Source: Desulfobacterales bacterium (lineage in GTDB: Bacteria > Desulfobacterota > Desulfobulbia > Desulfobulbales > BM004). From it: a DNA stretch of 64,000 nucleotides. The notes below the pieces were generated by a model. That model had not been told where the DNA came from. It saw only the letters and a program-made list of their open reading frames with translations, and searched no databases. The stretch is taken from assembly GCA_021647905.1 (NCBI GenBank), contig JAKITW010000003.1:3503-67502 (forward strand), written 5' to 3'. Of this stretch, positions 21,351 to 64,000 are shown one piece after another (position 1 is the first letter of the stretch; each line of letters starts with the position of its first letter). Made by a program: the position numbers and the translations under genes.

Positions 21351-21377
21351 CGATATTTCTCCTTTTTTATAAATCAA

Positions 21378-21406
21378 GGTGTCAGGTGTCGGGTTACAGG
21401 TGTCAG
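21378..21406. repeat. Tandem heptamer array GTGTCAG/GTGTCGG/GTTACAG/GTGTCAG
   Basis: Same heptamer family (GTNTCRG) as the arms at 30122-30151 and 30239-30268. A partial inverted partner ctgacacc lies at 21445-21452. Confidence 0.6.
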
Positions 21407-21559
21407 AAAAAACCAAAATCGCCGTTCAGAGTCAGGAGGTTAACCTGACACCTCTTGTGTCGTTTATATGAAAGTCGCACCGGACGAAGCTCACTGTCCG
21501 GGGAGATTTTCATTGTTGGTTGTGGCTGCGGCCCAAAAGTCATGGTCCAGCCATGCTGG

Positions 21560-25007: not shown

Positions 25008-25142
25008 GTTTTTCCCCGCGCTGTCAGCTTTTTTTATATCAAAGCCGCCACGAACGTACTGCCCAGCCATGCCGGGGTGACGCCCTTCATTGTTTGGATT
25101 ATGGCCAGCGGATATGGTCCGGCCATGCTCCATGCTGGTCAA

Positions 25143-25586: not shown

Positions 25587-25674
25587 GGCAGACCCTCCCG
25601 AAGTGATCAACAGGTGAAGAAAAAGGCCGGACCCCATCAACGGGGCCCGGCCGGCACGATGAACCGGACAGCAA

Positions 25675-26937: not shown

Positions 26938-26943
26938 GATTGA

Positions 26944-35858: not shown

Positions 35859-35880
35859 AAAGATGGATTACGTGCGTGCC

Positions 35881-36612: not shown

Positions 36613-36617
36613 AATAG

Positions 36618-49172: not shown

Positions 49173-49854
49173 GTGCAGTTTCCTCCGGATAAATTCGTAA
49201 CTATGATTAAATACACCTATTAAGCAGACATGGTCTCCGGGACCGGCAAATGAATATCAGTTCACCTGCAACGGCAGAGACATGCGACAATTCCAGGAAC
49301 GGAACCTTTAAAATTAACCAGTTTTTCACCTTTTTTCAAGAAAGGATTTTGAAAATCCGCCAAAGTTTTGCAGGATGGGGCGAGAGTGGTGACTTGTGGT
49401 TTCGGAAAGGAGGGTCCAAGGGCGATTTCGAATGAATTCACCACAAAGTACGGGCTCCCCTTTTTTTCCGAAGACGAGAAAAAGAAATCTATAGTCGCCT
49501 GGTAATATTATAAACCATACTAAAAACGGCATTGTCGGAAAACCAAGCGACAACACCGTATCCCTCTCAAACCTGAATGCATCCTTCAACGCCCCGGGCA
49601 CAACGACCAGGGCATGGAACCCTAATGAACGTATTCGAATTGGCAAAATTCCTCAACTGAAAAATAGCTGAATGTCACCTGGGAACCAATGATGACTTTA
49701 TCAACGGTTGTATCTCCGCCATGTCTGTGCTATACAGACAATCCGGTAAAAAAACGGCTGAAAGGCAAAAAAACTCCCGGGCAAACAGCTAGATTCGATG
49801 GATTTGTAAAAACCGGTTTTTGTCAGCGTTCACCATGGTTTCAAGGAGAAGATA

Positions 49855-50076
49855 ATGCGGGAAAGGGTACAAGCTGCAATCGATAAAGTCCGGCCCGCCC
49901 TGCAGCGGGACGGCGGCGACGTTATTCTGATGGAGATCACGGATGACGGGGTGGTCAAGGTGCAGCTCACCGGCGCCTGCAAGGGCTGTCCCATGTCCCA
50001 GATGACCCTGAAACAGGGTATTGAACAGTTTGTCAGAAGCGAAGTGCCGGAGATCAAAGCCGTGGAATCGATCTGA
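49855..50076 (+). CDS. NifU C-terminal-domain (Nfu-like) Fe-S assembly protein
   Basis: 73 aa. IDKVRPALQRDGGDV...GACKGCPMSQMTLK pattern. Confidence 0.8.
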   Translation: MRERVQAAIDKVRPALQRDGGDVILMEITDDGVVKVQLTGACKGCPMSQMTLKQGIEQFVRSEVPEIKAVESI

Positions 50077-50146
50077 CCCCGGAAGCTGTTCCCTTCCCCC
50101 ACCCGGGTACCTTGAGCCCCCTCCGGAAACGGGTGTTTCCGAAAGG

Positions 50147-50617
50147 TCATTTATGATATTTCTCACCGGCCTTAATGGTATGGGCGCGGTACAGCTGCTC
50201 CACCAGGAGCAGCCTGGCCATTTCATGGGTAAAGGTCATTGCCGACAGGGAAAGGACCAGGTCCGCCGCCTTGACAGCCGATGGCGCCAGCCCCAGGGCG
50301 CCGCCGATGAGAAAGGAGGCTGTCTTGATCCCCCTCCCCTCCCAACCGGTCAACCGGCCGGCCAGTTCCTCAGAGGAAAGCGGCCGGCCGCCGGGGTCCA
50401 GGGCCACGACCAGGCTGTTTTTTGAAACCGCGGCCAGCAGCACTTTGGTCTCGGCCTCGATCAAACGTGAATCAGGGTCGTTTTTCCTGACCCTGGGTTC
50501 TCGAATGGTCTTGATCTCCAGCCGGGTGTAGTGGCGGAGCCGCCTGGTAAAATCGTCTATTCCCGCGGCCAGGTACGGGGTCCTGGTCTTGCCGAGAAAG
50601 AGTAATTCCAGTTTCAT
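50147..50617 (-). CDS. rlmH: 23S rRNA (pseudouridine1915-N3)-methyltransferase
   Basis: 156 aa SPOUT protein. FLIGGALG and LSLSAMTFTHEMARLLLVEQLYRA motifs. Confidence 0.85.
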   Translation of the reverse strand: MKLELLFLGKTRTPYLAAGIDDFTRRLRHYTRLEIKTIREPRVRKNDPDSRLIEAETKVLLAAVSKNSLVVALDPGGRPLSSEELAGRLTGWEGRGIKTASFLIGGALGLAPSAVKAADLVLSLSAMTFTHEMARLLLVEQLYRAHTIKAGEKYHK

Positions 50618-50636
50618 CCCGGTCCACGCTGTTTTT

Positions 50637-50735
50637 GTCGGTCTCGTAAAAACATTCGAGACGGACGTGGGTCTTGTTGTAACTTGCTGATTCCGTTCAG
50701 TGGCATTTGAAACATTTCGGGTTGTTACGAGTTTG
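50637..50735 (+). mobile_element. 99-bp MITE, diverged copy A
   Basis: gtcggtctcgtaaaaacattcgagacggacgtgg...tttcgggttgttacgagtttg is about 80% identical by eye to the reverse complement of copies B and C. Its flanks are not a clean TSD. Confidence 0.7.
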
Positions 50736-51131
50736 TCATTTTTCGGAAGAACCGTCCAGGGTGGCGGCGAATTTCGCCCGGAACTCCGGGTAACTCATGG
50801 ACCGGTTGATTCCCGGGCAGGATTCCCGGATCGCGCTCAGGTTGGCCTCGTCCTTCAGAAGACTGGGGTGGAGCGGCCATTCCCGGCAGCGCCACGGCCT
50901 GCCCGGATGCACGGTACAGCCCTGGTCATAGAATATGCAGTGGCCGTCCCTGATCTTCATCTGGACGATGTTGCCGCTTATCCGCCAGAATTTTTCCGCC
51001 ACCTCTTTCTCGCTCATGCCCAGATGGGCGCACATCCGCCCGCGGTCCGCCTCGTCCAGCGACACCGTGGTCTGGCCATGGCAGCAATAGCCGCATTGTT
51101 GGCACTCGAATATTTTTTCGTCCATGTTCAC
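50736..51131 (-). CDS. YkgJ-family cysteine-cluster protein (CxxCxxCC; UPF0153)
   Basis: FECQQCGYCCHG near the N-terminus and CIFYD..GCTVHPGRPWRCREWP later. Confidence 0.7.
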   Translation of the reverse strand: MNMDEKIFECQQCGYCCHGQTTVSLDEADRGRMCAHLGMSEKEVAEKFWRISGNIVQMKIRDGHCIFYDQGCTVHPGRPWRCREWPLHPSLLKDEANLSAIRESCPGINRSMSYPEFRAKFAATLDGSSEK

Positions 51132-51193
51132 TCGGTGCCCTCTGCGTCCTCGGCGGTGAAATCAGACTTTTTTACGAGTCCGTCAAAAAATGA

Positions 51194-51292
51194 TGAACTC
51201 GTAACAACCCGAAAGGCTTCAAATGCCACCCAATAAAATCAACAAGTTACAAGACGAATCACGTCCGTCGAGCGGGTTGTTGCGAGACCGAC
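51194..51292 (-). mobile_element. 99-bp MITE, copy B
   Basis: Identical to copies C and D. Flanked by the direct repeat aaaaaatga (51185-51193 and 51293-51301). The terminal inverted repeat core is CTCG(Y)AACAACCCG. Confidence 0.85.
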
Positions 51293-51319
51293 AAAAAATG
51301 AAGAGAAACGTGAGATTGC

Positions 51320-51874
51320 TCATGCCGAACCCACTACATCACCGAACAGGGTGATGTCGATTCCATATTGTTGCGCGGCCCGTTTCCATTTCATCTCATC
51401 CGGGGTCTTGAAAAGAATCTCGTTTTCAGCCGGCAGCACCAGCCAGCCGTCCACAATGAGTTCGCTTTCCAGCTGGCCCGGGGCCCAGCCCGAATAGCCC
51501 AGGGTCAGCACATAGTCATCCGGCCCCTGGCCGAGCACTATATCCCTGAGAATCCGAGGCTCGGAGGAGAGACAGACCGTGCTGGTCACCTCCAGCCGGC
51601 TGGGCGCCTGGTAATCCGAAGAATAGAGGATAAAGACCGAGTTCAGCCCCACCGGACCGCCCATATAGACCGAGGGCAGGACCAGCCCTTCCGGGGCCTC
51701 GATATTGGCTGCCTGGAGGATCTCGGCAAAGCTTACGTCCGGTATGGGCTCGTTGACCACCAGGCCCATGGCCCCGCCCTCGGTATGGGCGCAGATATAC
51801 ACCACCCGCTGCTGGAAACGCGGGTCCGGCATCCGGGGCGTGGAGATGAGAAAATATCCCTGTAGACTTTCCAT
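51320..51874 (-). CDS. yqgE: YqgE/AlgH-family protein
   Basis: LQGYFLISTPRMPDPRF...GAMGLVVN...GGPV...GYSGWAPGQLE pattern. Start at the internal ATG 51874. Confidence 0.8.
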   Translation of the reverse strand: MESLQGYFLISTPRMPDPRFQQRVVYICAHTEGGAMGLVVNEPIPDVSFAEILQAANIEAPEGLVLPSVYMGGPVGLNSVFILYSSDYQAPSRLEVTSTVCLSSEPRILRDIVLGQGPDDYVLTLGYSGWAPGQLESELIVDGWLVLPAENEILFKTPDEMKWKRAAQQYGIDITLFGDVVGSA

Positions 51875-52073
51875 GATCGGCAACTCTTGTTTTGCGGGAC
51901 GCAAGGCCCGTTGATTCTTATCGGTTCCGAAAGACTAGCATTGGAGACAATCCCCGGTCAAGATCGAAACAGTGGCGTGACCACTGAACAGTCGGAATCC
52001 GTGCTGCGATCTTGCATCTGGACGCAGGAAAGGTATATTCTGCGTATGCAGTTATATATTCCGAATCTGCAGC

Positions 52074-52141
52074 ACTGCTGAACGGTTACCGGCCGAGGGG
52101 ATCTGCTCCTTTTGTGTCCCCTGGTGAACACTTACAAAATA
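52074..52141 (+). promoter_or_regulatory. Conserved roughly 70-nt upstream motif, copy B (immediately upstream of glgB)
   Basis: actgctgaacggttaccggccgagggg...cccctggtgaacacttacaaaata aligns with 32561-32630. Confidence 0.45.
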
Positions 52142-52152
52142 CCGAGGTCAAG

Positions 52153-54363
52153 ATGGCCGCAATCTCAATCGAAACAGAACTGGAACGGCTCCTGCGGGCC
52201 GACCAGCATGATCCCTTCCAGGTGCTGGGATTTCATTTTGTCGAACAACCGGCCGGGGCCGCGATTATCCGCGCCTTTCAACCCCAGGCCCAGTCCCTGC
52301 GCCTGCTGGCCTTTGACAAAAGCCTGGAGATGGAAAAAACCCGGCCCGAGGGATTGTTTGAAATCACGATCCCGGACTGTAGCGAGCCCTTTGCCTACCG
52401 GTTGGCGGCCGGTTATCACAACGGCGAAGTCCATGAGTTTGTCGACCCCTACCGGTTCCTGCCCCAGCTGGGCGAGATCGACCGCTATCTCTTTAACAGC
52501 GGCACCCATTATGAACTCTACAACCGGATGGGGGCCCACCTGGCCCTGGTGGATGATGTCAGCGGCGTCCTTTTCCGGGTATGGGCTCCCTCGGCCCGCC
52601 GGGTAAGCGTGATCGGCAACTTCAACGGCTGGGACGGCCGGATCCATCAGATGCGGATTCTGGGTTCATCCGGGATCTGGGAGTTGTTCATCCCCGGGCT
52701 GGCTGAAAACGAAATCTATAAATTCGAGATCCTGACCCGGGACGGTCGGCTGCTGGAAAAATCCGATCCCTTTCAATTCTTCGGCGAACTCCGGCCCCGG
52801 ACCGCCTCCATGGTATTTGACCTCAGTGCCTATCAATGGCAGGACCGGCAATGGATGCAGGCCCGGGCCGGGGTCCTGCCCTATGACCGCCCTTTTTCCA
52901 CCTACGAGGTCCATCTCGGCTCCTGGCAGCGCGACCCGGCCGACCCGGACCGGTTCCTCACCTATAAAGAGATAGCGGCCCGGTTGATCCCCTATGTCAA
53001 GGAGATGGGGTTCACCCATGTCGAGTTGATGCCGGTGATGGAGCACCCGCTGGACGAGTCATGGGGCTATCAGGTGACCGGGTATTACAGCGTAACCAGC
53101 CGCTACGGCCGGCCGGACGAATTCATGTACCTGGTCGACCAGTGCCACTGCAACGGGATCGGGGTCATCCTCGACTGGGTGCCGGCCCATTTTCCAACCG
53201 ATTCGCACAGCATCGCCCGGTTCGACGGCACTGCGCTCTACGAACACGAGGACCCGCGCCAGGGGTCCCACCCGGAATGGGGCACCCTGATCTTTAACTA
53301 CGGCCGCAAGGAGACCAGCAATTTTCTCATTGCCAATGCCCTGTTCTGGTTCGACAAGTTTCATATCGACGGGCTCAGGGTGGATGCGGTGGCCTCAATG
53401 CTCTATCTCGACTACTCCCGCAAGGAAGGTGAATGGCTGCCCAACCGTTACGGGGGCCGGGAGAATATCGAGGCGATCGAGTTCCTCAAACACCTGAACA
53501 GCGTGGTCTACCAGCGGTTCCCCAACGTGCTGATGATCGCCGAGGAGTCGACCAGTTTCTTCGGGGTTTCAAAATCGACCGACCAGGGCGGCCTGGGTTT
53601 CGGTTTTAAATGGAACATGGGCTGGATGAACGATACCCTGAGCTATTTCAGCAAGGATCCGCTGTACCGCAAATACCACCACAATGCGCTGACCTTTTCC
53701 CTTTACTACGCCTTTTCCGAAAACTTTATCCTGCCGCTCTCCCATGACGAGGTGGTGCACGGCAAACGCTCGCTGCTCGACCGGATGCCGGGCGATATCT
53801 GGCAGCAGTTCGCCAACCTGCGCCTGCTCTACCTGTATCTCTGGACCCACCCCGGCAAAAAACTGCTCTTCATGGGCAACGAGTTCGGACAGTGGTCGGA
53901 ATGGTACTGCAAGACCAGCCTGGACTGGCACCTGATCGAGCAGGAGCCCCTGCACGGCCAGGTCAAGGAGTTTGTCAAGGAACTGAACCGGTTCTACCGG
54001 GACAACCCGGCCCTGTGGGAGGTTGATTTCTCTGATCAGGGGTTCCGCTGGATGGACTTCCAGGATGCGGACAACTCGGTCATCGTCTTTGTCCGGTTTG
54101 CCAGGGACCAGCGGGACCACCTGGTCTGCGCGCTCAACTTCACCCCCCAGACCCTGGATGATTACAAGATCGGAGTACCTGCCAACCGGCACTACCAGGT
54201 GGTATTCAACTCCGATGCCTCTTTTTTCGGCGGCAGCAATAACGGCGCCCACGGCCACAAGGCCCCGGTCCCGGAACCATGGGGCGAGGCGCCCTTTCAT
54301 CTGACCGCCACTGTACCGCCCCTGGGCGGCATTATCCTGAAACCGATGAACACGGATAAATGA
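52153..54363 (+). CDS. glgB: 1,4-alpha-glucan branching enzyme
   Basis: GH13 motifs DWVPAHF, GLRVDAVASM, IAEEST and LPLSHDEV. Start at ATG 52153 after GAGG. Confidence 0.9.
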   Translation: MAAISIETELERLLRADQHDPFQVLGFHFVEQPAGAAIIRAFQPQAQSLRLLAFDKSLEMEKTRPEGLFEITIPDCSEPFAYRLAAGYHNGEVHEFVDPYRFLPQLGEIDRYLFNSGTHYELYNRMGAHLALVDDVSGVLFRVWAPSARRVSVIGNFNGWDGRIHQMRILGSSGIWELFIPGLAENEIYKFEILTRDGRLLEKSDPFQFFGELRPRTASMVFDLSAYQWQDRQWMQARAGVLPYDRPFSTYEVHLGSWQRDPADPDRFLTYKEIAARLIPYVKEMGFTHVELMPVMEHPLDESWGYQVTGYYSVTSRYGRPDEFMYLVDQCHCNGIGVILDWVPAHFPTDSHSIARFDGTALYEHEDPRQGSHPEWGTLIFNYGRKETSNFLIANALFWFDKFHIDGLRVDAVASMLYLDYSRKEGEWLPNRYGGRENIEAIEFLKHLNSVVYQRFPNVLMIAEESTSFFGVSKSTDQGGLGFGFKWNMGWMNDTLSYFSKDPLYRKYHHNALTFSLYYAFSENFILPLSHDEVVHGKRSLLDRMPGDIWQQFANLRLLYLYLWTHPGKKLLFMGNEFGQWSEWYCKTSLDWHLIEQEPLHGQVKEFVKELNRFYRDNPALWEVDFSDQGFRWMDFQDADNSVIVFVRFARDQRDHLVCALNFTPQTLDDYKIGVPANRHYQVVFNSDASFFGGSNNGAHGHKAPVPEPWGEAPFHLTATVPPLGGIILKPMNTDK

Positions 54364-54371
54364 AGAAAAAT

Positions 54372-54441
54372 CCACCGCAGAGGGCGCAGAGGACGCAAGG
54401 TTAACCAAATAAAATGATACCCTCTCTGCGTCCTCTGCGGT
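54372..54441. repeat. Palindromic GCAGAGG-type element, possible glgB terminator/REP
   Basis: Perfect 13-bp stem cgcagaggacgca (54385-54397) / tgcgtcctctgcg (54427-54439), extendable by 2-3 bp, with an AT-rich 29-nt loop. The arms are built from CGCAGAGG units. Confidence 0.65.
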
Positions 54442-54486
54442 AAAATCTTACAGGGTCGTTCCCCGGACCCGTTGAGGAGGAAAAAA

Positions 54487-54696
54487 ATGACCCCGACCAG
54501 CGATCTGCAACCAAGCGGTGAAAGAATCCGTCAGGCCCTCTGCTGGGTCAGCGATATCCTGGCGGCCTATCCGGAAAAAAAGCGGCGGGCAGTGCTCAAG
54601 GAGGCGGAGATCCGCTTTGATCTCACCCCGCGCGAATGCGAGTTCCTGAACAAGGAGTTTCCCGGCGCACCAGGTGAGATCGAAGCGGACAGATAA
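54487..54696 (+). CDS. Small hypothetical protein (69 aa)
   Basis: ATG 54487 is preceded by GAGGAGG. No family recognised. Confidence 0.45.
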   Translation: MTPTSDLQPSGERIRQALCWVSDILAAYPEKKRRAVLKEAEIRFDLTPRECEFLNKEFPGAPGEIEADR

Positions 54697-54698
54697 CT

Positions 54699-55613
54699 CT
54701 ACTTCTCTTCCGCCCTCTTTCGCTTCAAGGCATAGTTGGCCGCATTGAGGCCGGCGATACAGCCCTCGCCCACCGCCTTGGCCATCTGGTAGGGATGACC
54801 GGTAATATCGCCGGCCGCGTAGATTCCCGGAATATTGGTCTTCTGTTTCTTATCCGTGTTGATATGGGTAAAGGTCTCCATGTCGAGCTGGACCCCGAGG
54901 ATGGTGGCCAGTTCAAGGGCGCCCTTGGCCCCCAGTTCGATAAACACCCCTTGCACCGCAATATTCCGTCCATCCTCGAGCAGGACCCCGGTCACCGCGT
55001 TCTCGCCGACAATTTCCTTGACCCAGTTGCCTTCCAGCACCGTTACCGGCCCGTCCACGAGCTTGTCCCGCAGTTTGCCGGACACTGACAGTTCCCTGGC
55101 TATCAAAAAAACCTCGGAGGCGTAGCCGGTCATGGTCAGGGCGCCGTCCACCGCCGCGCTCTCATTGCCGATAACCGCCACCGGCACGTTGCGGTAGAAA
55201 TTGGCGTCGCAGTCCACGCAGTAACTGACCCCGCGGCCGGCCAGTTCTTTTTCACCCGCCACTTTCAGCTTTTTCCGGGAGGTGCCGGTGGTAAAGATAA
55301 TCGTCCGGGCCGTGATCTTGCGGCCCGACTCCACCGCGATCGCGAACTTTTCATCCACCGCCTCGATATGCAGGACATCCTCGGGCCAGACCTGGGCCCC
55401 GAACCCCTTGACCTGCTCCAGGCCGATTTCCAGCAACTCCTTGCCCTCCCTGACCCCTTCAAGGCAGAGATAGTTCTCCACATGGGCCCGGTAGAGGCTG
55501 CTCTTTTCCAGCCGGCCGAGGACCAGGACCGCGGCCCTTTTCCGGACCGCATGGAGCGCGGCCTGGAGGCCGGCCGGGCCGGCGCCGATTATCACAACAT
55601 CATAGATGTCCAT
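54699..55613 (-). CDS. Thioredoxin-reductase-like FAD/NAD(P) oxidoreductase
   Basis: VVIIGAGPAGL, a CVDC redox pair in place of CATC, and a GDITG motif near the C-terminus. Confidence 0.75.
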   Translation of the reverse strand: MDIYDVVIIGAGPAGLQAALHAVRKRAAVLVLGRLEKSSLYRAHVENYLCLEGVREGKELLEIGLEQVKGFGAQVWPEDVLHIEAVDEKFAIAVESGRKITARTIIFTTGTSRKKLKVAGEKELAGRGVSYCVDCDANFYRNVPVAVIGNESAAVDGALTMTGYASEVFLIARELSVSGKLRDKLVDGPVTVLEGNWVKEIVGENAVTGVLLEDGRNIAVQGVFIELGAKGALELATILGVQLDMETFTHINTDKKQKTNIPGIYAAGDITGHPYQMAKAVGEGCIAGLNAANYALKRKRAEEK

Positions 55614-55638
55614 TATGCTTGCTCCTTTAGCTTGATTT

Positions 55639-55675
55639 GCCGGTCTCGCAATAACCCGCGAGACGGACGTGTGTC
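55639..55675 (+). mobile_element. MITE 5'-end fragment, copy E
   Basis: gccggtctcgcaataacccgcgagacggacgtgtgtc matches the first roughly 37 nt of the MITE. The rest is absent. Confidence 0.5.
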
Positions 55676-55868
55676 ATACGGAAAACAAAAAACTGGTTTA
55701 CCGAAATGCCAGAGGGTACTTTAATGACTGTCGGGCCATGAATCAAGGTCGACAGGACCCATAAGATCGACTATAGTAGCGGCCTTTTGGATTTTCAGTC
55801 TTATTATCAAAAATATCCGGGCACTGCGAACCATCCGGAGTTTTTTTATTACTCACGACACGCCTATC

Positions 55869-57122
55869 ATGGATACCTTTGCCCCAGAGCAACGAATCGT
55901 GATCACCGGCATCGGCCTGGCAGCGCCCAATGCCGACAACCTTCCCGAATACCGCGAGAAACTGCTGGCCGGCAAAAGCGAGATCCAGGAGATCGAGCTT
56001 CGCTTCATGGGCCCGGCACCGGCCGGGATCTGTTCCTTTGACGAGACCAGGTACCGCAAGAAAAAGGAAAACAAGCGCGGCACCCGGGCCGGCTGTCTCG
56101 GGGTCTACTGCGCCAACGAGGCCATAAACGACGCAGGGATCGATTTTTCCGAATATGACCGGAGCCGGACCGGGGTCTATATCGGCCTTACCGAACACGG
56201 CACCGTGGAGACGGAAAACGAGATCTATAATATCAGCCAGTTCGACTATAACACCGATTACTGGACCCATCACCATAACCCGCGCACAGTCCTGAACAAC
56301 CCGGCCGGCGAGATCACCATGAACCTGGGGATCACCGGGCCCCATTATTCGGTGGGCGGGGCCTGTGCCGCCGGCAATGCGGCCCTGATCCAGGGGGTGC
56401 AGATGCTCCGCCTGGGCGAGGTGGACATGGCCCTGTCCGGCGGGATCTCCGAATGCACCGGCTCCTTTGGAATCTTTGCCAGCTTCAAGGCCCAGGGCGC
56501 CCTGGCCATGCACCAGGACCCGACCAGGGCCAGCCGGCCCTTTGATCTGCAACGAAACGGGATCGTGGTCTCCGAGGGGGCCTGCGTCTATACCCTGGAA
56601 CGGCTCGACCGGGCCCTGGCCCGGGGCGTTGAGAGAATATACGGTGAGATCGTCGGTTACGGGATGAACTCCGATGCCCGCGACTTTGTCCTGCCCTACG
56701 GGCCGCGCCAGGCCCAGTGCATGGAACTGGCGCTGAAGCGGGCCGGGCTTCGGCCCGGGGAGATCGATATCATCAACACCCATGCCACCGGCACCAAGCA
56801 GGGGGATATTGAGGAGTGCTCGGCAATAAGAACGGTATTCGGCAACAGCGCCAGGACCCATGTAAATAACACCAAAAGCATCATCGGCCATGCCATGGGC
56901 GCGGCCGGGGTTCTCGAACTGGCCGGCAACCTGCCCTCTTTCATTGACAACCAGGTACACCCGACCATCAATGTGGATGAACTCGACCCGGACTGCGACC
57001 TTACCAATCTGGTGATCAACCGGCCCAAAAAACTGGACCGGATCGAGACCATCCTTAACAACTCATTCGGCATGGTGGGGATCAACTCGGTGGTCATCGT
57101 CAGGAAGTACACCCGGGACTGA
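55869..57122 (+). CDS. Beta-ketoacyl-ACP synthase (KAS I/II type)
   Basis: Active-site Cys in VGGACAAGN and the His-His pair in NTHATGT and GHAMGAAG. Confidence 0.8.
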   Translation: MDTFAPEQRIVITGIGLAAPNADNLPEYREKLLAGKSEIQEIELRFMGPAPAGICSFDETRYRKKKENKRGTRAGCLGVYCANEAINDAGIDFSEYDRSRTGVYIGLTEHGTVETENEIYNISQFDYNTDYWTHHHNPRTVLNNPAGEITMNLGITGPHYSVGGACAAGNAALIQGVQMLRLGEVDMALSGGISECTGSFGIFASFKAQGALAMHQDPTRASRPFDLQRNGIVVSEGACVYTLERLDRALARGVERIYGEIVGYGMNSDARDFVLPYGPRQAQCMELALKRAGLRPGEIDIINTHATGTKQGDIEECSAIRTVFGNSARTHVNNTKSIIGHAMGAAGVLELAGNLPSFIDNQVHPTINVDELDPDCDLTNLVINRPKKLDRIETILNNSFGMVGINSVVIVRKYTRD

Positions 57123-57217
57123 CCAGCAGGGCCGGACCATGACCGGCCGGCCATAACAAAATAATCGAAAACGTCACTCCGGCATGGCAAGGACCGCGCC
57201 TGGCGGCGACCTTCACA
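57120..57217 (+). repeat. Intergenic repeat, copy R2 (partner of 6646-6745)
   Basis: Starts at the KAS stop codon. Shares the GGCCGG...CCGGCC hairpin and the cactccggcatggcaaggaccgcgc core with R1. Confidence 0.7.
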
Positions 57218-57270
57218 TAAATCTTGCCTCAAACCGGACCCCTTCCGAATCGAATACCAGGTTGGACAGC

Positions 57271-58389
57271 ATGCGCAACACCCCTCCCCCATCCACCAAG
57301 ACCAGGAAATGGCTCCTCTACGCCATCCTGACCCTGTTCATCGCCATTTTCGCGGCCCGGCTTTTTGAGCGGCCCCGGCACGACATTGATGCGGAACCGC
57401 GGCCAGTGGTGGCCCGGGGCGATCTGGCCGCTGATGAGAGGAACACCATTGACATCTTCAAGTCAGCCTCCCCCTCGGTGGTCTATATCACCACCACCGA
57501 ACTGCGACGCGGCCTTTTCAGTCTGAACGTCTATGAGATTCCCCAGGGCACGGGGTCTGGTTTTGTCTGGGACAAGGAAGGAAGAATCGTCACCAACTTT
57601 CACGTGATCGGCGAGGCCAGCCGGGTGGAGGTGACCCTGGCCGATCAATCCACCTGGGAGGGCAAACTGGTCGGCGCGGCGCCGGACAAGGATATCGCCG
57701 TCCTGCAGATCACAGCGCCGAAAGACAAGCTCCACCCCATTTCCATCGGCGATTCCAGAAATCTGCAGGTCGGCCAGAAGGTCTTTGCCATCGGCAACCC
57801 CTTTGGCCTGGACCACACGATCACCGCGGGAATCGTCAGTGCCCTGGGCCGCGAGATCAAGGCGGTTACCGGCAGAACGATCCAGGATGTGATCCAGACC
57901 GATGCGGCGATCAACCCGGGCAATTCAGGCGGACCGCTGCTTGACAGCGCCGGCCGGTTGATCGGGGTCAATACCGCTATCTTCAGCCCGTCCGGGGCCA
58001 ATTCAGGGATCGGTTTTGCCGTGCCGGTGGAAGGGGTGAACCGGGTGGCAACGGAACTTATCCGCCATGGCCGCCTGATCCGGCCCGGCATGGGGATCCA
58101 GGTAGCCAACCAACGTATCGTCCGCCGGTTGAAAATCAAGGGGGTGCTGATCGTCAGGGTGCAGAAGAACGGCGCCGCGGACCGGGCCGGACTGATCGGC
58201 ACCCGGGAAGTGCGCGGCAATATTGTTCTCGGCGATATCATCCAGTCGATCAACGGTCAGCGGGTGCTTAATTACGACGACCTGCGCAACGAACTGGACC
58301 AATACAAGATCAACGACACGGTCACCGCGGGCATCCTCCGGGGCAGCAAGAGGATGTCCGTGGAGGTTACACTGGAAGCCATCGAATAG
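57271..58389 (+). CDS. HtrA/DegP-family serine protease with one PDZ domain
   Basis: N-terminal TM anchor, catalytic triad contexts TNFHVI, DIAVLQI and GNSGGPL, and a C-terminal PDZ. Start at ATG 57271. Confidence 0.85.
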   Translation: MRNTPPPSTKTRKWLLYAILTLFIAIFAARLFERPRHDIDAEPRPVVARGDLAADERNTIDIFKSASPSVVYITTTELRRGLFSLNVYEIPQGTGSGFVWDKEGRIVTNFHVIGEASRVEVTLADQSTWEGKLVGAAPDKDIAVLQITAPKDKLHPISIGDSRNLQVGQKVFAIGNPFGLDHTITAGIVSALGREIKAVTGRTIQDVIQTDAAINPGNSGGPLLDSAGRLIGVNTAIFSPSGANSGIGFAVPVEGVNRVATELIRHGRLIRPGMGIQVANQRIVRRLKIKGVLIVRVQKNGAADRAGLIGTREVRGNIVLGDIIQSINGQRVLNYDDLRNELDQYKINDTVTAGILRGSKRMSVEVTLEAIE

Positions 58390-58399
58390 AACGCTCTCC

Positions 58400-58898
58400 T
58401 GCCGGTGTTGAGCCGACGGGGCAGGAAACAGCCGGACACCAGTCGCCGGGCTGCTCAACCGCAATATTTTTCAAATCAAATTGAGTAAGAAAATAGGAGG
58501 CATGGGTTGCCAGAACCACCTGCGTTCTTCTGGAGGCCCCCTCTCAAATAGACCTGCCAGAATTGGCAAGGTGCGCGGATGAACTCCCTGATCAGGTTCA
58601 TCAATACAGATCAAGGTCGGAGGAGTCGGCATTACGCATAAGGTCGCCCAGGCAATAAACCGAAGTGTGCCGTCGGATAAATCGGCCAAGCTCAAATCCG
58701 TATCAATATTGTTCTCCCGCCAGAAGGCAATGACTTCACCGGGACCGCAATCAAAAGACTCCTCCTTTCCTTATATCCTGCTTCCTTCCCATGCGGTATT
58801 TGATGTCGTAGTTGACATTAATGTCCAGTTCGCTTTGCCCTCCCTGGACTTCGGCAACAAGGCGCCTGAGTTCTTCACGGATCATGCCGCGATTCCCT
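58400..58898 (-). pseudogene. Frameshifted AAA_21/ABC-type ATPase remnant
   Basis: Three frames carry successive pieces: MIREELRRLVAEV...; then LSLADLSDGTLRFIAWATLCVMPTPPTLICIDEPDQGVHPRTLPILAGLFE; then RRTQVVLATHASYFLTQFDLKNIAV. No Walker A region remains. Confidence 0.6.
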
Positions 58899-59007
58899 CA
58901 TGGTTTGACTCCCCGGCCTGAAGCCGTGTTTGGCCGATTACTGTGTAAGGTTTCCTTGCTTCCCCGGAATCATGCGGTTCCCTATCACGGCTGTTTTCAA
59001 TACTTGA

Positions 59008-59106
59008 TGAACTCGTAACAACCCGAAAGGCTTCAAATGCCACCCAATAAAATCAACAAGTTACAAGACGAATCACGTCCGTCGAGCGGGTTGTTGCGAG
59101 ACCGAC
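59008..59106 (-). mobile_element. 99-bp MITE, copy C
   Basis: Identical to copies B and D. Flanked by the direct repeat aatacttga (58999-59007 and 59107-59115). Confidence 0.85.
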
Positions 59107-59191
59107 AATACTTGAGAAAAGCATAATTTCATGGACGTCCCTCTCGTAACTCTCGTCCCTCTTGTAACTCTCGCGAGCGCCATTGGAGATA

Positions 59192-60337
59192 TCAGTGAGG
59201 CGCTTTGCTGCCGGCGATACCATTAAGCCATTTGGCAAACACAGGATCGACCACCTTCCAGGTTCCGCTCTCTTTCGCCTGTTCAATGAAATCTTCTTTT
59301 TTGAGCCTATCGCGGGCAAATTGCACAGAACTCGTGGGCAGACCGCACTTGCTGATGAATTCACCGGACAGCATTTCCTTGGTCGATGATTGGGCAAGGG
59401 TGCGAAGGACCCGCACTTGCGGAATGGTCAACTGGGATAGGACCGCTTCAAAGGCGTACCGCTCCGCATCGATCACCTGTTCCAGCGCCCGCTTCACATC
59501 TTCTTGTAAGAATTCGTCCTTTTCGAGGTCATAGACTTCTCTGGCCAGTCGTTGTACGTAATAGGGATGCTGCTCAACCTTCAAGGAGATTTCCGCGCAG
59601 AGTTCATCAGGACAGTCTTTTCCCTCCTTAGCGAAAAGCTCGGACAGGAAGGCAACAAGATCCTCGTGGGGAAGAGGAGGGAGTTCCATATTGATTGCTG
59701 ATTGAAAAAAAGGCCTCTTCCGCTCGGAAAACATGGCCCTGAGAATACCCCTCCGGCTGCCGAGAAAAAAGAACGAGGCCTTTAGCCCCTGGATCTTGCC
59801 GCGCATGATCCCCTCGATTTGTGCAGATTCCTTAAGCCTGGTGATTTCCTGAAATTCATCCAGCACAAAGTTTACCCGATAGCCTGACTTCGCGGTAAAC
59901 TCGGCCAGTTCGCCCAGGATACGTTCAAGTAGCTCCATCGGTTTTTCCGTCGAAGCGGGCTCTACGCCGACGGAGACGCCATCTTCCGTAGGTCTGAATA
60001 CCGGGCGGAACGAACTGAAATATTTAAGAAGCCTTTTTCCCTTCGCCAGCAACGACTCCCGGGCATGGATGGCCCCCAGTATGCTTCGGGCCATTCGGGA
60101 GGCGGCATCCAGGACCGAGTCTACACCGAAGAACTGGCAGTAAATAGTCACATACCCTTGTCTTGCGAGCATCGCCTGGATCCGGAGGGCCAGTGACGTT
60201 TTCCCATAGCGGCGGGGAGAAAGAAGCACGATATTCGTGCCGCTTTCAGCACAGGAAAGCAACCGGCGTATTTCCTCCTGCCTGTCGCAAAAGGGGCTGT
60301 CCGGCGGAAGGGTCTCAATGAGAAAAGGATTGGGCAT
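59192..60337 (-). CDS. Arch_ATPase-type (PF01637-like) AAA+ ATPase with a putative C-terminal wHTH
   Basis: FCDRQEEIRRL...IVLLSPRRYGKTSL (Walker A) and FVLDEFQEI (Walker B). Confidence 0.75.
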   Translation of the reverse strand: MPNPFLIETLPPDSPFCDRQEEIRRLLSCAESGTNIVLLSPRRYGKTSLALRIQAMLARQGYVTIYCQFFGVDSVLDAASRMARSILGAIHARESLLAKGKRLLKYFSSFRPVFRPTEDGVSVGVEPASTEKPMELLERILGELAEFTAKSGYRVNFVLDEFQEITRLKESAQIEGIMRGKIQGLKASFFFLGSRRGILRAMFSERKRPFFQSAINMELPPLPHEDLVAFLSELFAKEGKDCPDELCAEISLKVEQHPYYVQRLAREVYDLEKDEFLQEDVKRALEQVIDAERYAFEAVLSQLTIPQVRVLRTLAQSSTKEMLSGEFISKCGLPTSSVQFARDRLKKEDFIEQAKESGTWKVVDPVFAKWLNGIAGSKAPH

Positions 60338-60724
60338 TGCAATCTCCTCGTTACAAGCATCCCGTTACACGATTCTTGTAATGCATTGCCAGGCAGTGGT
60401 CAAGGATAAAAATAGAGAATAGGTGAAGGTTATGCGTGCAACAGGCGTCGCTGAAGGAGCGTCTGCATGTCACGACGTCCATCGGCAATCAGGGGGAGAC
60501 ATAGACGTTGTTCTCTACTACTCTACCCCGTCCCCGCTCTGAGGACATCTGCGGTTATATTGTATATGCTATGCCCCCTGCTGAGAAACAAAACAGTAGA
60601 GTTTGTCATCAGTAGTCAATAGCGTTTTCCCCGAAGCAGGTCAAAAATAAATCCGACCCCTTTTCGTTCCGCTCCAACTCTCTAAACCACGACAATTCAA
60701 CGAATTCAACAACGGACTCCTCAC

Positions 60725-61303
60725 TCACACCGGTTTATACGTTGAGACTTTTTTGCCAAGGGACATAGCTTGCTTCAAGAGTTGGGCCACTTTTCCTCCA
60801 GGGTGTGCGTAAGGGACAAACAGCTCCTCGGCCAATGCGGCAACAAAGGTATTTCGTTCAACTCCCAATGTAAGCGTCGGACGCCGGTGTTTATTTGGAA
60901 AAGGTGAGACCACCAGCAATCTTCCCTCAGCCAATGATTTTCTCCAAACCTTAGGTATGCGCATATGCTCTATGCCACGGGCCGGACAGATTACCAAGGG
61001 CTGTGTGCCTCTTAACAGAAAGTCCAGACACTCCTTTTCCATAGGTGAATGAAAACCGCCGATAACCACTGTCCCATTATCCCGCCACGATCTGGCCAGG
61101 TCGTAAGTTTTCAAGATAATGTCACCCGGGCATCTGGTTGAGCAGAAAAAGCCTAATAACTTATGCTGGAGAATATCAATATTACCGATAGCCCAAATTT
61201 TATGAGGAGGAGGAAGCAGGTTACTGTCCTGCAATTTCGAAGGATATACAGGATTATTGAAAGCTATAGTGTTTACCTGAACCGTCATTGACTCTGTCAC
61301 CAT
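60725..61303 (-). CDS. Short DprA/Smf-like (SLOG/Rossmann) protein
   Basis: KLLGFFCSTRCPGDIILKTYDLARSWRDNGTVVIGGFHSPMEKECLDFLLRGTQPLVICPARGI resembles the DprA core (GxxSGxAxGID replaced by GGFHSPMEKE). It lacks the SAM and DML1 flanking domains. Confidence 0.55.
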   Translation of the reverse strand: MVTESMTVQVNTIAFNNPVYPSKLQDSNLLPPPHKIWAIGNIDILQHKLLGFFCSTRCPGDIILKTYDLARSWRDNGTVVIGGFHSPMEKECLDFLLRGTQPLVICPARGIEHMRIPKVWRKSLAEGRLLVVSPFPNKHRRPTLTLGVERNTFVAALAEELFVPYAHPGGKVAQLLKQAMSLGKKVSTYKPV

Positions 61304-61342
61304 TTTATTCTATCCCAAGGCCTTAAGGATAGATTTCTAATG

Positions 61343-61386
61343 TAGATGCTATATCCAGAATTTATCCAGAAAATTCTTGGTAAATT
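61343..61386. promoter_or_regulatory. Operator-like 13-bp perfect inverted repeat upstream of the DprA-like gene
   Basis: atatccagaattt (61343-61355) / aaattctggatat (61374-61386), 40-80 nt upstream of ATG 61303. Confidence 0.45.
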
Positions 61387-61550
61387 CTGGATATAAAAAT
61401 TGCTCGGGGTAGGTGGGATCTGCGATGTCAATGACTATCACTTGGCTGTTTTATTCTTACTTTGCCAATGAAACTCTTCCAATAACACCGTTTCTGTAAA
61501 TAGAATTCTATTAGCGGACAATTGCTAATAGAATCGCTAATAGATTCCCC

Positions 61551-63343
61551 TTAAGACAAGGCATAACGCGCCCATCGGAGTTTCCCCTCTCGTCTCAGTA
61601 CCCCAGCATGAGTCATTCTTTTCAGCAGATATGAGGCCCTGGTCATATCTACTCCCAGCAACTCTCTGCATTCAGCATTGTTAATGGAACCATGCTCCCG
61701 GACATGGGCAATAATTCTTTCTTCGCCGCTTTGCGGCGGCTGTTGCTCGACCGGTAGTTTATGAGGTACGTTCAGGGTGTAGCTGGTACCCCGACCTACG
61801 CCTTGTTGTTCTACTAAGCCGGCCTGGGCCAGACCCCGCAGTTCCTGGCCGGCAACGATAGTATCGACCCTGTTCAGCCGCCTGTAGTCGCTGTTGGTGA
61901 TTTTCCCGTGATGCCTCAGATAGATGAGGGTGAGGCGTTGCCGGTCGTTCAGAGCATGGTCGGCAAATTGATTAAGCCAGGAAATGGCTTCCGGTGACAT
62001 CAATGTGTGGTTATGAAAAGTTATCCTGAAAGAAGAACGCCAGTCGTCAAAACGGGGAGGTTCCAGATTGGCGGTTCGAAGCGCATGGAGCATGGCCTTG
62101 ATACCGCTGCCGCGATTCTCCACAATATGCATATCTTCCATCATCCGCATAAGCCGGGCATTTCGCGTGGAGTGTTCTTCGTCAATATTGTCGGTCTCGC
62201 AACAACCCGCTCGACGGACGTGATTCGTCTTGTAACTTGTTGATTTTATTGGGTGGCATTTGAAGCCTTTCGGGTTGTTACGAGTTCATCAATATTATCA
62301 ACCGTTACATTTCCAAAAAGACCTCCAGGGCTTGAAACTTCCAGACGGTTTGCGAACATGCGAATCTGGATGTAACTGCCCCGGACATGCGAGCTGTAAT
62401 CACGGTGCGCCACCGCATTGGCAATGGCTTCCCGCAAGGCTTCCTGTGGATACTCCGGGATATCGCGGCGGAACATACCCTCAATAAGAGAGGCCTTACG
62501 CATCGATCCCATCACATAACTTTCAGCAGCGGCAACCATCTCGGGCACAGGGCCTTCAAACGTCCGGTTATCCACGAACCGGGCGCCCTGCGGAGTCCGC
62601 TCGTCATCGGTTGTGCCGTAGTATTGAATAAAGGTAATTGTGAGTTGGGGGAGAAATTCCTGGGGGTATTTTCCGAACATGAGAAGCCCTGCCAATGTTG
62701 GCCGGAATGTCTCCCCATCCCGACCAATTACACGCAGGCGGGCAAGGACTTCTTCTTTCCGCCCTTGTAAGAAGGTGGCTCTTGGCCTGGTACGGCGCAG
62801 ATTATCGAGATATTGATTCAGGAGCGAGTCATCGAGATCTTCGATATGAGCATTTTTGATTATGTCTTCATCGTGGGTCGGCTGTCCCCGACTGCTCATA
62901 TAACCGAAGACTTCGTAGTCGGTCATCCGGCGGTTGGTGTTCCCGACACGGATGTACGAGCCTTTCTGCAAGCCCGCACTTTTATAGAAGCACGGTTTCC
63001 GATCAACGGGAATCTCCTCGATGGTTACCGCCACTATTGTCTGGTCATCAATCTCATCGATTATAAATTCAGGCCGCAATGCCGGCTCCATTTCATGGGC
63101 TGCCAAAAGGGTTAACTCTTCCTGCAACCGATGGGCATCACCCACACCGACTATGGAAAAGTCGCTGGTTTCGTCCAAGCCGAACAGGATCACACCGCCA
63201 CCTGTCCGGTTGGCAAAAGCAGAAAGCGGCTCAAACAATCGCCTGGGCGTCCCGCCCCGAGCCGCCTTGACCTCAAGGTTGTCGAGTTCAGTCTGCTGCC
63301 TCTGCACAGAGGCTATGAGTTGGTGTAATTCTTCCCGTGTCAT
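61551..63343 (-). pseudogene. AlbA_2 (Schlafen-like) plus HATPase_c_4 plus wHTH protein, interrupted by a MITE
   Basis: The N-part (63343..62289) ends ...GNVTVDNID and then reads into the MITE. The C-part resumes EEHSTRNARLMRMMEDMHIVENRGSGI (62189..61551). Removing the 99-bp MITE and one 8-bp TSD copy leaves 1686 nt, a 561-aa intact frame. Confidence 0.85.
62190..62288 (+). mobile_element. 99-bp MITE, copy D (inside the AlbA_2 gene)
   Basis: Its reverse complement is identical to copies B and C. Flanked by the direct repeat tcaatatt (62182-62189 and 62289-62296). Confidence 0.9.
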
Positions 63344-63381
63344 GACTGTAAATAAAAAACCTCGGCCTCCTATAGCAGCCA

Positions 63382-63430
63382 AATCAACAAATCAGCCTCG
63401 GCTTGGGTAAGCATCAAAAAATCCTCATTT
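63382..63430. repeat. 49-bp direct repeat, copy 1
   Basis: aatcaacaaatcagcctcggcttgggtaagcatcaaa...cctcattt parallels 63942-63990. On the minus strand it encodes MLTQAEADLLI followed by an early stop. Confidence 0.75.
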
Positions 63431-63659
63431 AATTAATGCCGATGCGGTATTTGTTGTCGCAGTTGATGATGGGGTTCAGTTCTTCGTCCGTGAAGTTGTC
63501 AAGCCGTGCTTGGATACGGTCGATTCGGTCGATAAATTGTCTACCCGGTTTCACCAGCGCCCCTACCGCTACCGTACTACGATATTTTGTGTTTGGATCA
63601 CCTTTCCAAACCCAAAACGTTCAGAAAATCCCCATAAAATATCTTCTTATTACAATATA

Positions 63660-63974
63660 TTACATGCTTATTATGATCTTTTCGCCCAAATGTTTTGGGG
63701 ATTCGCAGGGCAAAATCCCCAAAACTCCGATATCCTGTCCTATGATTCCCCGCCGTCCGGTCCAGGGAACCACAGCGCCCCCCGTTTTTACTCTGCCATC
63801 CGGATGATGGATTTCTTTGTTATTATGGTCGTACACCAAACGATATTTTGCAGGGTAAAGGGTTAACCGGCCGCTGTCCCGCAACTCACGCAGGATCTGG
63901 CCCGGAAGTTCAACAGGCTCGCCCTTCGGGTCTGTCAGCACAATCAACAAATCAGCCTCGGTTTGGGTAAGCAT
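63660..63974 (-). CDS. Hypothetical protein (about 104 aa), possibly wHTH-like; C-terminus doubtful
   Basis: MLTQTEADLLIVLTDPKGEPVELPGQILRELRDSGRLTLYPAKYRLVY.... The last roughly 25 codons run through a perfect 12-bp hairpin, and a further open fragment (..GRQFIDRIDRIQARLDNFTDEELNPIINCDNKYRIGIN*) lies downstream in another frame. Confidence 0.4.
   Translation of the reverse strand: MLTQTEADLLIVLTDPKGEPVELPGQILRELRDSGRLTLYPAKYRLVYDHNNKEIHHPDGRVKTGGAVVPWTGRRGIIGQDIGVLGILPCESPKHLGEKIIISM
63692..63725. repeat. Perfect 12-bp hairpin
   Basis: gttttggggatt (63692-63703) / aatccccaaaac (63714-63725) with a 10-nt loop. Confidence 0.7.
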
Positions 63975-63990
63975 CAAACAGCCCTCATTT
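63942..63990. repeat. 49-bp direct repeat, copy 2
   Basis: aatcaacaaatcagcctcggtttgggtaagcatcaaa...cctcattt. It contains the start and first 11 codons of the 63660-63974 ORF. Confidence 0.75.
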
Positions 63991-64000
63991 CAGTTTATGC

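Follow-up and report, generated by a model that had tools for sequence, protein, structure and literature searches.

The non-autonomous DNA transposons (MITEs) described from prokaryotes, among them Correia, RUP, ERIC, Chunjie, QMITE, and Nezha, are smaller than 500 bp, contain no complete ORF, and carry inverted repeats of about 4–30 bp (PMC10969869). Their G+C content is below that of the host, they fold into a stable end-to-end hairpin, their full-length and truncated copies occur together and in clusters, and their insertions are mostly intergenic with the occasional disruption of a gene (PMC10969869). These features are shared by a 99-bp element in the stretch of DNA analyzed here, a 64-kb contig segment hereafter called the window. 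Compared by description, the element also resembles Chunjie of Geobacter uraniireducens, which is 178–235 bp long and present in dozens of copies (PMC10969869). Both are recently active MITEs of a Deltaproteobacteria-type anaerobe with direct repeats and conserved inverted repeats; partial copies are numerous, and an insertion in an operon is apparently tolerated, represented here by copies A and B among the algH-like, ykgJ, and rlmH genes. We are highly confident that the 99-mer belongs to a previously undescribed MITE family, most likely moved by a transposase encoded elsewhere.

The first-pass annotation had reported three identical copies, a fourth that was about 80% identical, and a fragment, all of which were recovered (Table 1). 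Copies B, C, and D were alike at 99 of 99 bases, and the identity of copy A was confirmed both by direct count and by BLAST (80.4% over 97 nt). The fragment consists of the right end only, its left part having been deleted; BLAST aligned 31 nt at 90%, and about 37 nt could be matched by eye. It lies around 25 nt upstream of the trxB-like start codon. Copy A begins exactly after the stop codon of ykgJ and precedes the rlmH start, copy B lies between ykgJ (CxxCxxCC) and an algH-like gene, and copy C is found downstream of degP, within an island specific to the window. With respect to the neighboring genes, both orientations occur among the copies. The right-end-like sequence next to copy B matched the right end of copy A at 13 of 14 positions, a score equaled by 1 of 500 shuffles, and it might conceivably be a sixth relic. 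A sensitive BLAST of the whole window yielded no further copies of the 99-mer. The known total is therefore eight copies or relics (five in the window and three in the contigs L001 and L002), so that the statistics of the family are thin.

Table 1. Positions of the element copies and associated features (window coordinates)
Feature	Position	Strand	Remarks
MITE copy A, old	50637-50735	-	78/99 identical (79%), no indels
Copy A duplication, decayed			AAAAATGA / AAAAACAG
Copy A decayed duplication	50629-50636 / 50736-50743		CTGTTTTT / TCATTTTT; 5/8 retained
Empty site of A			AAAAATAG in L004; GAAAATAG in L007
Candidate sixth relic TTTTTACGAGTCCGTC, right-end-like	51169-51184	+	directly abuts target of B
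MITE copy B (master sequence, 99 bp)	51194-51292	+	100% identical to C and D
Copy B inverted-repeat cores	51198-51211 and 51273-51286
Copy B duplication AAAAAATGA	51185-51193 / 51293-51301		exact 9-bp direct repeat
MITE right-end fragment, ~37 nt	55639-55675	-	upstream of trxB-like gene
MITE copy C	59008-59106	+	100% identical to B and D
Copy C inverted-repeat cores	59012-59025 and 59087-59100
Copy C duplication AATACTTGA	58999-59007 / 59107-59115
MITE copy D	62190-62288	-	within a gene; 100% identical to B and C
Copy D duplication TCAATATT	62182-62189 / 62289-62296		reads AATATTGA in element orientation
AlbA_2 / HATPase_c_4 / winged-helix regulator gene	61551-63342	-	divided by D; resulting ORFs 62246-63382 and 61551-62150

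The comparison of empty and filled sites that the first-pass annotation had proposed was possible at two of the insertions. Two syntenic relatives with about 90% DNA identity have a clean empty site at A and no element at B. In L004, L007, and L008, the site of A consists of a single AAAAATAG or GAAAATAG, and at B the element is likewise absent, with BLAST breakpoints at window positions 51130 and 51317. Around the candidate relic, roughly 78 bp of window-specific filler is missing from the relatives. Their alignments stop near position 58400, and the island holding copy C is not present in them. At the locus of the fragment, the same conserved flanks enclose unrelated fillers of 23 nt (L007) and 68 nt (L004).

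Copy D has inactivated a defence-island regulator gene. When D and one 8-bp repeat were cut out (107 bp), a continuous frame of 577 codons was obtained, encoding a 561-aa AlbA_2/HATPase_c_4/wHTH protein. The two split ORFs matched the HATPase_c_4 profile at positions 1–42 and 46–89 with about 35 bits each, and the rejoined protein gave one full match (1–89, 90.3 bits).

Outside the window, three copies were found in two hydrothermal-vent MAG contigs, L001 and L002, which are short, binned to other phyla, and derived from one vent sample (PMC9769843). Copy 1 of L002 is 100% identical and flanked by AAGCCATGA/AAGCCATGG, and copy 2 is identical at 97 of 99 bases (98%) and flanked by AATCCTGA on both sides. 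The copy in L001 is cut by the contig end, with AATCCTTGA on its visible side. Copy 2 of L002 splits a DUF1016 gene, and excision of the element plus 8 bp restores the DUF1016 N-terminus. The flanking repeats thus hold at both L002 copies. L001 and L002 have the element alone in common with the window, and the flanks are unrelated at every copy; the 99-mer is a stand-alone unit rather than a part of a larger repeat. Both of the refuting conditions that the first-pass annotation had set were thus checked, and both results favored its interpretation.

The ends of the element had been described as terminal inverted repeats, of which the repeat itself stood and the strictly terminal position did not. 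The core CTCGYAACAACCCG (≤2 mismatches) occurs 8 times in the window versus 0.74 expected, and 0 of 100 shuffles reached 8. The two 14-bp repeats, CTCGTAACAACCCG and CGGGTTGTTGCGAG, differ by one mismatch and begin 4 nt from the left tip (TGAAC...) and 6 nt from the right tip (GTCGG...), and these outermost 4–6 nt do not match each other. The element has a G+C content of 48% versus 57% for the window, and its insertion targets are A/T-rich. Each of the six frames is either closed or extends beyond the end of the element, and the 99 bp contain no complete ORF or transposase, in line with the earlier claim of no coding capacity. The sole ATG, at nt 30, begins a frame of 23 codons that reaches no stop within the element. 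At the left end, an AAAGG-N6-ATG motif is followed by MPPNKINKLQ..., a putative N-terminal remnant.

As the first-pass annotation had stated, the window appears to encode no transposase, since no such domain was found in its 50 largest ORFs. An autonomous IS sharing these termini was sought in the window, L001, and L002, with a negative result. When genome, metagenome, and viral collections were scanned for exact patterns, no full-length element emerged; L001 and L002 were the only matches among genomes, the right end had no match in metagenomes, and plasmids, phages, and viral contigs had none. For the left end, the large collections gave one doubtful 32-nt match without a right end (L003), upstream of a lysA-like gene. 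Searches of the literature for sequence strings returned unrelated primers only. The partner was not found, and we therefore infer, rather than observe, the recent mobilization by a transposase encoded elsewhere.

The family has long been active in this lineage, in which copy A, the fragment at 55.6 kb, and perhaps the relic at 51.17 kb are old and decayed. With zero substitutions among them, copies B, C, and D appear to represent a recent burst. The duplications are crisp in the young copies and decayed in copy A, which fits the general waning of MITE duplications with age (PMC10969869). A transposase from elsewhere in the genome would most likely bind the 14-bp subterminal repeats and cut at the element tips. 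The element would then be integrated into a staggered cut at AA-N3-4-TGA targets, and gap repair would create the 8–9-bp duplication. We infer a DDE-type enzyme acting in trans, as well as the length of its stagger and a cut-and-paste or copy-and-paste mode. The effects are those of selfish insertion, comprising the gene hit by D and the two intergenic spacers of the algH-ykgJ-rlmH gene row that were lengthened by A and B.

The direct repeats previously noted around copies B, C, and D were borne out exactly, and all five complete young copies have a distinct 8–9-bp repeat, which in one case contains a 1-nt mismatch. Since the duplicated bases differ between the copies (AAAAAA, AATACT, AATAT, AAGCCA, and AATCC), the repeat stems from the target rather than from a crossover core shared with the element. 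Its length is variable, at 8 or 9 bp. With TGA as both the last three bases of the left duplication and the first three of the element, the boundary is ambiguous, and an element of 99 bp with an 8–9-bp duplication or one of 102 bp with a 5–6-bp duplication gives the identical footprint of 107/108 bp. The insertion sites read AA-N3-4-TGA in 7 of 7 cases, in a single orientation relative to the element, with a chance expectation of about 6e-4 per site. There are 209 such motifs in the window, 52 of which lie beyond 50 kb, and this density fails to explain five copies in 12 kb, so that target availability was rejected as the cause of the clustering. Targeting of stop codons was also rejected, as TGA is a stop only at A and is out of frame at D and at copy 2 of L002.

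This asymmetric target preference in one orientation is the sole unusual feature of the element. The target preferences of DDE transposases are usually palindromic, as in IS10, Tn5, and IS903, and the motif was therefore counted against a MITE moved by such an enzyme, together with the missing autonomous IS, the unlike tips, the variable duplication length, and the small number of known copies. It is possible, if rather unlikely, that the transposase reads an asymmetric target in one orientation with a duplication flexing over 8–9 (or 5–6) bp, and that the enzyme belongs to an uncharacterized family. Different target bases would then be read at either end of the transpososome. We know of no such target choice among IS families with duplications of this size. 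If this reading is true, the identical copies in contigs assigned to three phyla would point to a very recent inter-phylum spread in the vent community.

The same seven sites, at the same chance per site, would also be expected if the miniature element were moved by an orientation-specific, sequence-directed recombinase (IS110/IS1111-like, Tn7-like, or otherwise target-reading), for which AA...TGA would be the attachment site, with TGA inside the element and a duplication of 5–6 bp. The subterminal inverted repeats with tips unlike each other are in favor of this explanation, as is the smaller number of substitutions that the 102-bp model with a 5–6-bp duplication requires at A (TAG in the relatives, CAG in the window) and at copy 1 of L002 (TGG). 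We nevertheless consider it improbable, since the duplicated bases are different at every copy (AAAAAATGA, AATACTTGA, AATATTGA, AAGCCATGA, and AATCCTGA). Such copy-specific repeats are the mark of transposition with a staggered cut and do not characterize tyrosine, serine, or DEDD recombination. The identical crossover core at all copies that characterizes the IS110/IS1111 DEDD bridge-RNA systems and the tyrosine and serine recombinases is absent, and no IS110/IS1111-like, Tn7-like, or similar target-reading recombinase gene was found near any copy.

The young copies fold end to end with a stable 14-bp stem (−31.3 kcal/mol, z = −4.9), and several copies lie at gene boundaries, such as copy A after a stop codon and the fragment before the trxB-like start. 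Both observations would suit a structured ncRNA gene or a REP/ERIC-like repeat kept for a host function and spread by recombination. In the old copy A, however, the end-to-end hairpin is gone with no compensating changes (z = −0.55), so that the hairpin is explained by the inverted repeats rather than by selection for an RNA structure. A right-end hairpin is present in copy A and the fragment but is disrupted in B, C, and D, the active copies. Moreover, there was no Rfam match at E ≤ 1 (window 49000–64000), consensus scans of the element detected neither a promoter nor a terminator motif, the target duplication is individual to each copy, and copies occur in both orientations relative to neighboring genes. 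Two copies lie inside coding sequences and destroy them, and close relatives do without the element at the same loci, all of which makes a host function very improbable.

An assembly or binning artefact, such as chimeric joins at a repeat, has a negligible probability: the window does come from a MAG (the YkgJ protein encoded there is identical to MCF6289572.1, whose annotation reads "Desulfobacterales bacterium"), one outside copy ends at a contig edge, and the outside contigs are short, binned to other phyla, and from one vent sample (PMC9769843), but the sequence is continuous around every complete copy, with matching duplications to its left and right, excision restores the reading frames exactly, and synteny with independent assemblies is continuous through the A and B sites, so that mis-binning may account for the phylum labels of L001 and L002 and could not create the element. 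Several other classes were also rejected. A composite transposon, with A and B inverted around ykgJ, does not fit: B is bordered by a perfect duplication of its own, no direct repeat is formed by the outer flanks, and MITE-free relatives carry ykgJ at the same syntenic place. The ends do not fit the RYYYAAC/GTTRRRY of an integron attC site (by eye), and target duplications are present. These duplications also speak against an IS200/IS605-derived PATE, which has no inverted termini, no duplication, subterminal hairpins, and insertion 3′ of a short fixed motif. A promoter or terminator cargo found no support in the consensus scans.

In practice, the 99-mer matters chiefly for annotation. The ORFs 61551–62150 and 62246–63382 constitute a single gene killed by insertion, and the unusually long algH-ykgJ and ykgJ-rlmH spacers represent transposon scars. 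The element could be used as a strain-level marker for the Desulfobacterales lineage and its vent community. Its scientific value is modest: one orphan family, found in an uncultured lineage of the sulfate-reducer type, is added to the MITEs. The seven sites with one motif in one orientation form a small, clean data set on target choice, which could lead to an unusual transposase.

Apart from its target preference, this is a real and ordinary miniature element of a new orphan MITE family. It differs from the described prokaryotic MITEs in its subterminal repeats, its asymmetric AA-N3-4-TGA target in one orientation, and the absence of sequence matches in Rfam, plasmids, phages, viral contigs, and literature strings. 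No cognate IS was found that would place it among either the type I or the type II MITEs. Duplications of 8–9 bp are made by IS1, IS256, IS66, ISL3, IS1595, ISAs1, the IS903 group of IS5, and IS4, and with its 8–9-bp duplication and A/T-rich targets the element matches these families more closely than those that duplicate 2–5 bp. To our knowledge, the tips of the element are unlike the canonical tips of any of them; if TGA lies within the element, the duplication is 5–6 bp and another set of IS families applies. IS186 (IS4 family) produces a duplication of variable length bounded by a G-run N C-run in a palindromic target, and thus provides a precedent for a duplication that varies by 1 nt and has ends fixed by sequence preference. 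In contrast to IS186, the target ends AA and TGA are unrelated here, and the orientation is fixed.

The 99-bp family is a genuine, recently active and previously undescribed MITE. It is mobile DNA on four independent lines of evidence, namely the restoration of interrupted genes, empty sites in relatives, copies elsewhere and the decay of a diverged copy. The region 50400-64000 was read directly, after which the five claimed occurrences were aligned and compared by script. As the first-pass annotation had stated, copies B, C and D were identical base for base and lay between exactly the direct repeats it had listed; the diverged copy A and the fragment were also found. A BLAST search of the entire 64 kb with the 99-mer as query (word size 7) returned these five occurrences, the rest being at noise level, and the inverted-repeat core CTCGYAACAACCCG occurred 8 times in the window vs. 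0.74 expected by chance. The description of the termini as inverted repeats held in part: the repeats are present, but they start inside the tips, by 4 nt on the left and 6 nt on the right, and the tips themselves are unmatched. The 16 nt adjoining B's target (51169-51184) resemble A's right end (13/14, with 1 in 500 shuffles equally good) and may be a sixth relic.

Occurrences of the MITE, their targets in the element's orientation, and other features of the window
Feature	Position	Strand	Target	Remark
Copy A	50637-50735	minus	AAAAATGA / AAAAACAG	78/99 positions match, indel-free; decayed duplication as flanks
Copy B	51194-51292	plus	AAAAAATGA	99/99 identity with C and D
Copy C	59008-59106	plus	AATACTTGA	99/99 identity with B and D
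Copy D	62190-62288	minus	AATATTGA	99/99 identity with B and C
MITE fragment	55639-55675			element's right end only
Outside contig L002, copy 1			AAGCCATG(A/G)	
Outside contig L002, copy 2			AATCCTGA	
Outside contig L001, copy			AATCCTTGA	
ATPase_2/AAA_16-type ATPase	59192-60337			in island
DprA-like protein	60725-61303			in island
AlbA_2 regulator				in island; split by the MITE
Second repeat family, two copies	6645-6745, 57122-57221			about 100 nt, unrelated to the MITE
Four large ORFs in a row	22107-28572	minus		1011, 189, 420 and 542 aa
9-bp tandem units	44724-44840			GCCGGTGCT-like, about 10 in-register copies
DruA (Druantia) homologue (E = 1e-34) and two paralogous AAA_14/DUF4143 ATPases	506-1441, 3233-4363, 4670-5857			left end of the window

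All seven targets started with AA and ended with TGA against the element's left tip, which also starts with TGA. The motif is asymmetric, and the insertions had one orientation relative to it in 7/7 cases. Since its composition-based chance is about 6e-4 per site, the target preference is real, and this asymmetric, one-orientation preference is the single feature that merits further attention. The element boundary is ambiguous because of the TGA-TGA junction. The five young copies are most simply read as a 99-bp element with an 8-9-bp duplication; with a 102-bp element and a 5-6-bp duplication, fewer substitutions are required at two sites, namely A, where both relatives have TAG and CAG now stands in the right flank in the window, and L002 copy 1, whose right flank is TGG. 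The two models leave an identical footprint. An orientation-specific recombinase that reads its target and makes a shorter true duplication, the only alternative of any real weight, is improbable, as the duplicated bases are copy-specific, and a crossover core as in integrase- or IS110-type elements was ruled out by the difference in repeated bases from copy to copy. The window contained 209 target motifs, only 52 of them beyond 50 kb, so that the confinement of all copies of the MITE to the last 13 kb is not explained by target density; local hopping, or tolerated insertions near the island, may possibly account for the clustering.

Copy D sits between the minus-strand ORFs 61551-62150 and 62246-63382 and splits a HATPase_c_4 domain (Pfam), the first half of which (profile 1-42) ends one ORF while 46-89 starts the other. 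In silico deletion of D's 99 bp and one 8-bp repeat yielded a continuous 577-codon frame, and the restored 561-aa protein had a single full-length HATPase_c_4 domain (1-89, 90.3 bits) with AlbA_2 on one side and winged-helix domains on the other. Excision of the second L002 copy with 8 bp restored the N-terminus of a DUF1016 protein. In the window, the element has inactivated one regulator of the defence island and left several scars between genes.

In the young copies, the two ends pair when the element folds (-31.3 kcal/mol, z = -4.9). In copy A this pairing is gone (z = -0.55) without a compensating change and the duplication has decayed too, which is the behaviour of a transposon relic and not of a selected RNA. 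A functional RNA is accordingly very unlikely: Rfam gave no match at E <= 1 over 49000-64000, and no sigma-70-like promoter or intrinsic-terminator motif was found in the element. An artefact is just as hard to credit.

Relatives were found via close homologues of YkgJ, the protein encoded between A and B, which is itself identical to MCF6289572.1 of a Desulfobacterales bacterium MAG. Contigs from GCA_054013415.1 (L004) and from ENA ERZ23498652 and Logan SRR8443421 (L007/L008) shared synteny with the window, at a DNA identity of about 89-95%. The comparison of empty and filled sites, which the first-pass annotation had proposed, gave a clean empty site at A, with a single AAAAATAG in L004 and a single GAAAATAG in L007; the BLAST alignment broke at window positions 50635 and 50738, exactly the element plus one repeat. 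At B's site the relatives had no element, and in L007 the algH and ykgJ genes have a 4-bp overlap. The window has 186 extra bases between these genes, 108 of which are B and its duplication. A composite transposon around ykgJ was rejected, as B has its own duplication and the relatives carry ykgJ in the same place without the element.

Besides B, about 78 bp of additional algH-ykgJ sequence (51131-51193 and 51302-51316) was absent from the relatives, and this filler may in part represent an older relic of the MITE. The ancestral ykgJ start (ATGAGCA...) was left about 180 nt upstream in the window, where a new ATG is in use and the N-terminus reads MDEK... vs. MS(T/R)DEK... In the relatives, the conserved flanks of the fragment's site are the same but enclose unrelated fillers of 23 and 68 nt. 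The spot, which precedes a trxB-like start codon by about 25 nt, is hypervariable and contains three unrelated inserts between identical flanks in three related genomes: the MITE fragment in the window, a 68-nt G+C-rich hairpin sequence in L004 (~3345-3412) and a 23-nt hairpin in L007 (~2900-2922).

Outside the window, a scan for the 19-mer AACTCGTAACAACCCGAAA in one genome per species gave matches in two contigs only, L001 and L002, whose MAGs come from a single hydrothermal chimney sample of the Southwest Indian Ridge, 'Dive96' (PMC9769843). L002 (48% G+C) covers a type I restriction locus that includes RhuM and DUF1016 genes; its first copy was 100% identical and flanked by AAGCCATGA/AAGCCATGG, and its second matched at 97/99 positions with flanks AATCCTGA/AATCCTGA. 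In L001 (41% G+C), a cytosine methylase locus, the copy is cut by the contig end and preceded by AATCCTTGA. Copies beyond the window therefore have repeats of their own, as both in L002 do, and the 99-mer is a unit in itself and not part of a larger repeat, since the two contigs have nothing in common with the window beyond the element. The contigs, of 3.9 and 6.5 kb, were binned as Planctomycetota and Verrucomicrobia, and Desulfobacterota make up 12% of the community in that vent sample (PMC9769843). Mis-binning is easy with defence-island contigs that are short and low in G+C, so that cross-phylum transfer of the MITE is possible at most. L002 also has three successive N-terminal fragments of one protein kind (4500-4620, 4862-4990 and 6139-6235; MPK(S/P)(G/S)EHKTV(H/Q)ARILKYA...IGW(S/T)FV), which alternate with the two MITE copies and the RhuM gene, a pattern that suggests repeated insertions or rearrangements at this locus.

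The first-pass annotation had also placed the transposase outside the window, and Pfam indeed identified none in its 50 largest non-overlapping ORFs; none was found in L001 or L002. Plasmid, phage and viral collections contained nothing similar to the element, and only unrelated primers matched its termini in the literature searched. In a metagenome collection, a 24-position pattern of the right end had no match, and the left-end 19-mer matched one contig, L003, where a 32-nt stretch (1284-1314) was 90% identical to the left end and the right end was absent. The match lies upstream of a gene resembling, by eye, a lysA-type decarboxylase. The match is doubtful, being either a chance hit of the 19-mer or a very old remnant carried by an unrelated organism of low G+C.

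The island itself (58404-64000, after degP) has 49.6% G+C over 60001-64000 vs. 57% overall and is absent from L004 and L007; in L004, a RhuM fragment occupies the corresponding position. Frameshifted AAA_21-like ATPase pieces with a DEPDQGVHP motif were seen by eye at about 58470-58700. Two short repeat pairs, 58788-58831 / 63439-63482 (77%) and 63376-63430 / 63936-63990 (89%), are found at small-ORF ends and resemble paralogous small genes or the 3' ends of such genes; they are possibly toxin-antitoxin-like.

The second repeat family lies upstream of plus-strand genes in the window, 6890-8125 and degP (57184-58389), and at a different locus in L004, the KAS-trxB spacer (3007-3104, minus strand). 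Its copies are 76-86% identical and share CTCCGGCATGGCAAGG in 3/3 cases, followed by ACCGCGC in the two window copies, with the GG-N10-GC spacing of a sigma-54 promoter by eye; Rfam had no match over the 57.1-kb copy. By the names of its homologues, the window belongs to Thermodesulfobacteriota of the Desulfobacterales/Desulfobulbales type; its genes include an acetyl-CoA synthase/CO dehydrogenase cluster. The tandem units lie inside an 891-aa MTHFR/CdhD fusion ORF (43457-46132) and presumably encode a low-complexity linker. Of the four minus-strand ORFs, the 420-aa one matched only Mo-co_dimer, and weakly (E = 6.8e-5); Pfam gave no match for the 1011- and 542-aa ORFs (E <= 0.01) or the 189-aa ORF (<= 0.001), nor for ORFs 6890-8125, 20334-21443 and 35863-36813. 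The paralogous ATPases at the left end have a common 48-nt repeat (88%, 3162-3209 / 6075-6122).

Mobilization of the MITE in trans is very probable, and the details of the mechanism, DDE chemistry and an 8-9-bp stagger, are proposed with less confidence. A transposase supplied in trans would bind the subterminal inverted repeats, the element would integrate at a staggered cut, and repair of this cut would produce the duplication. A trans-supplied transposase, a staggered cut and a repair duplication constitute the standard mechanism of MITEs (PMC10969869).
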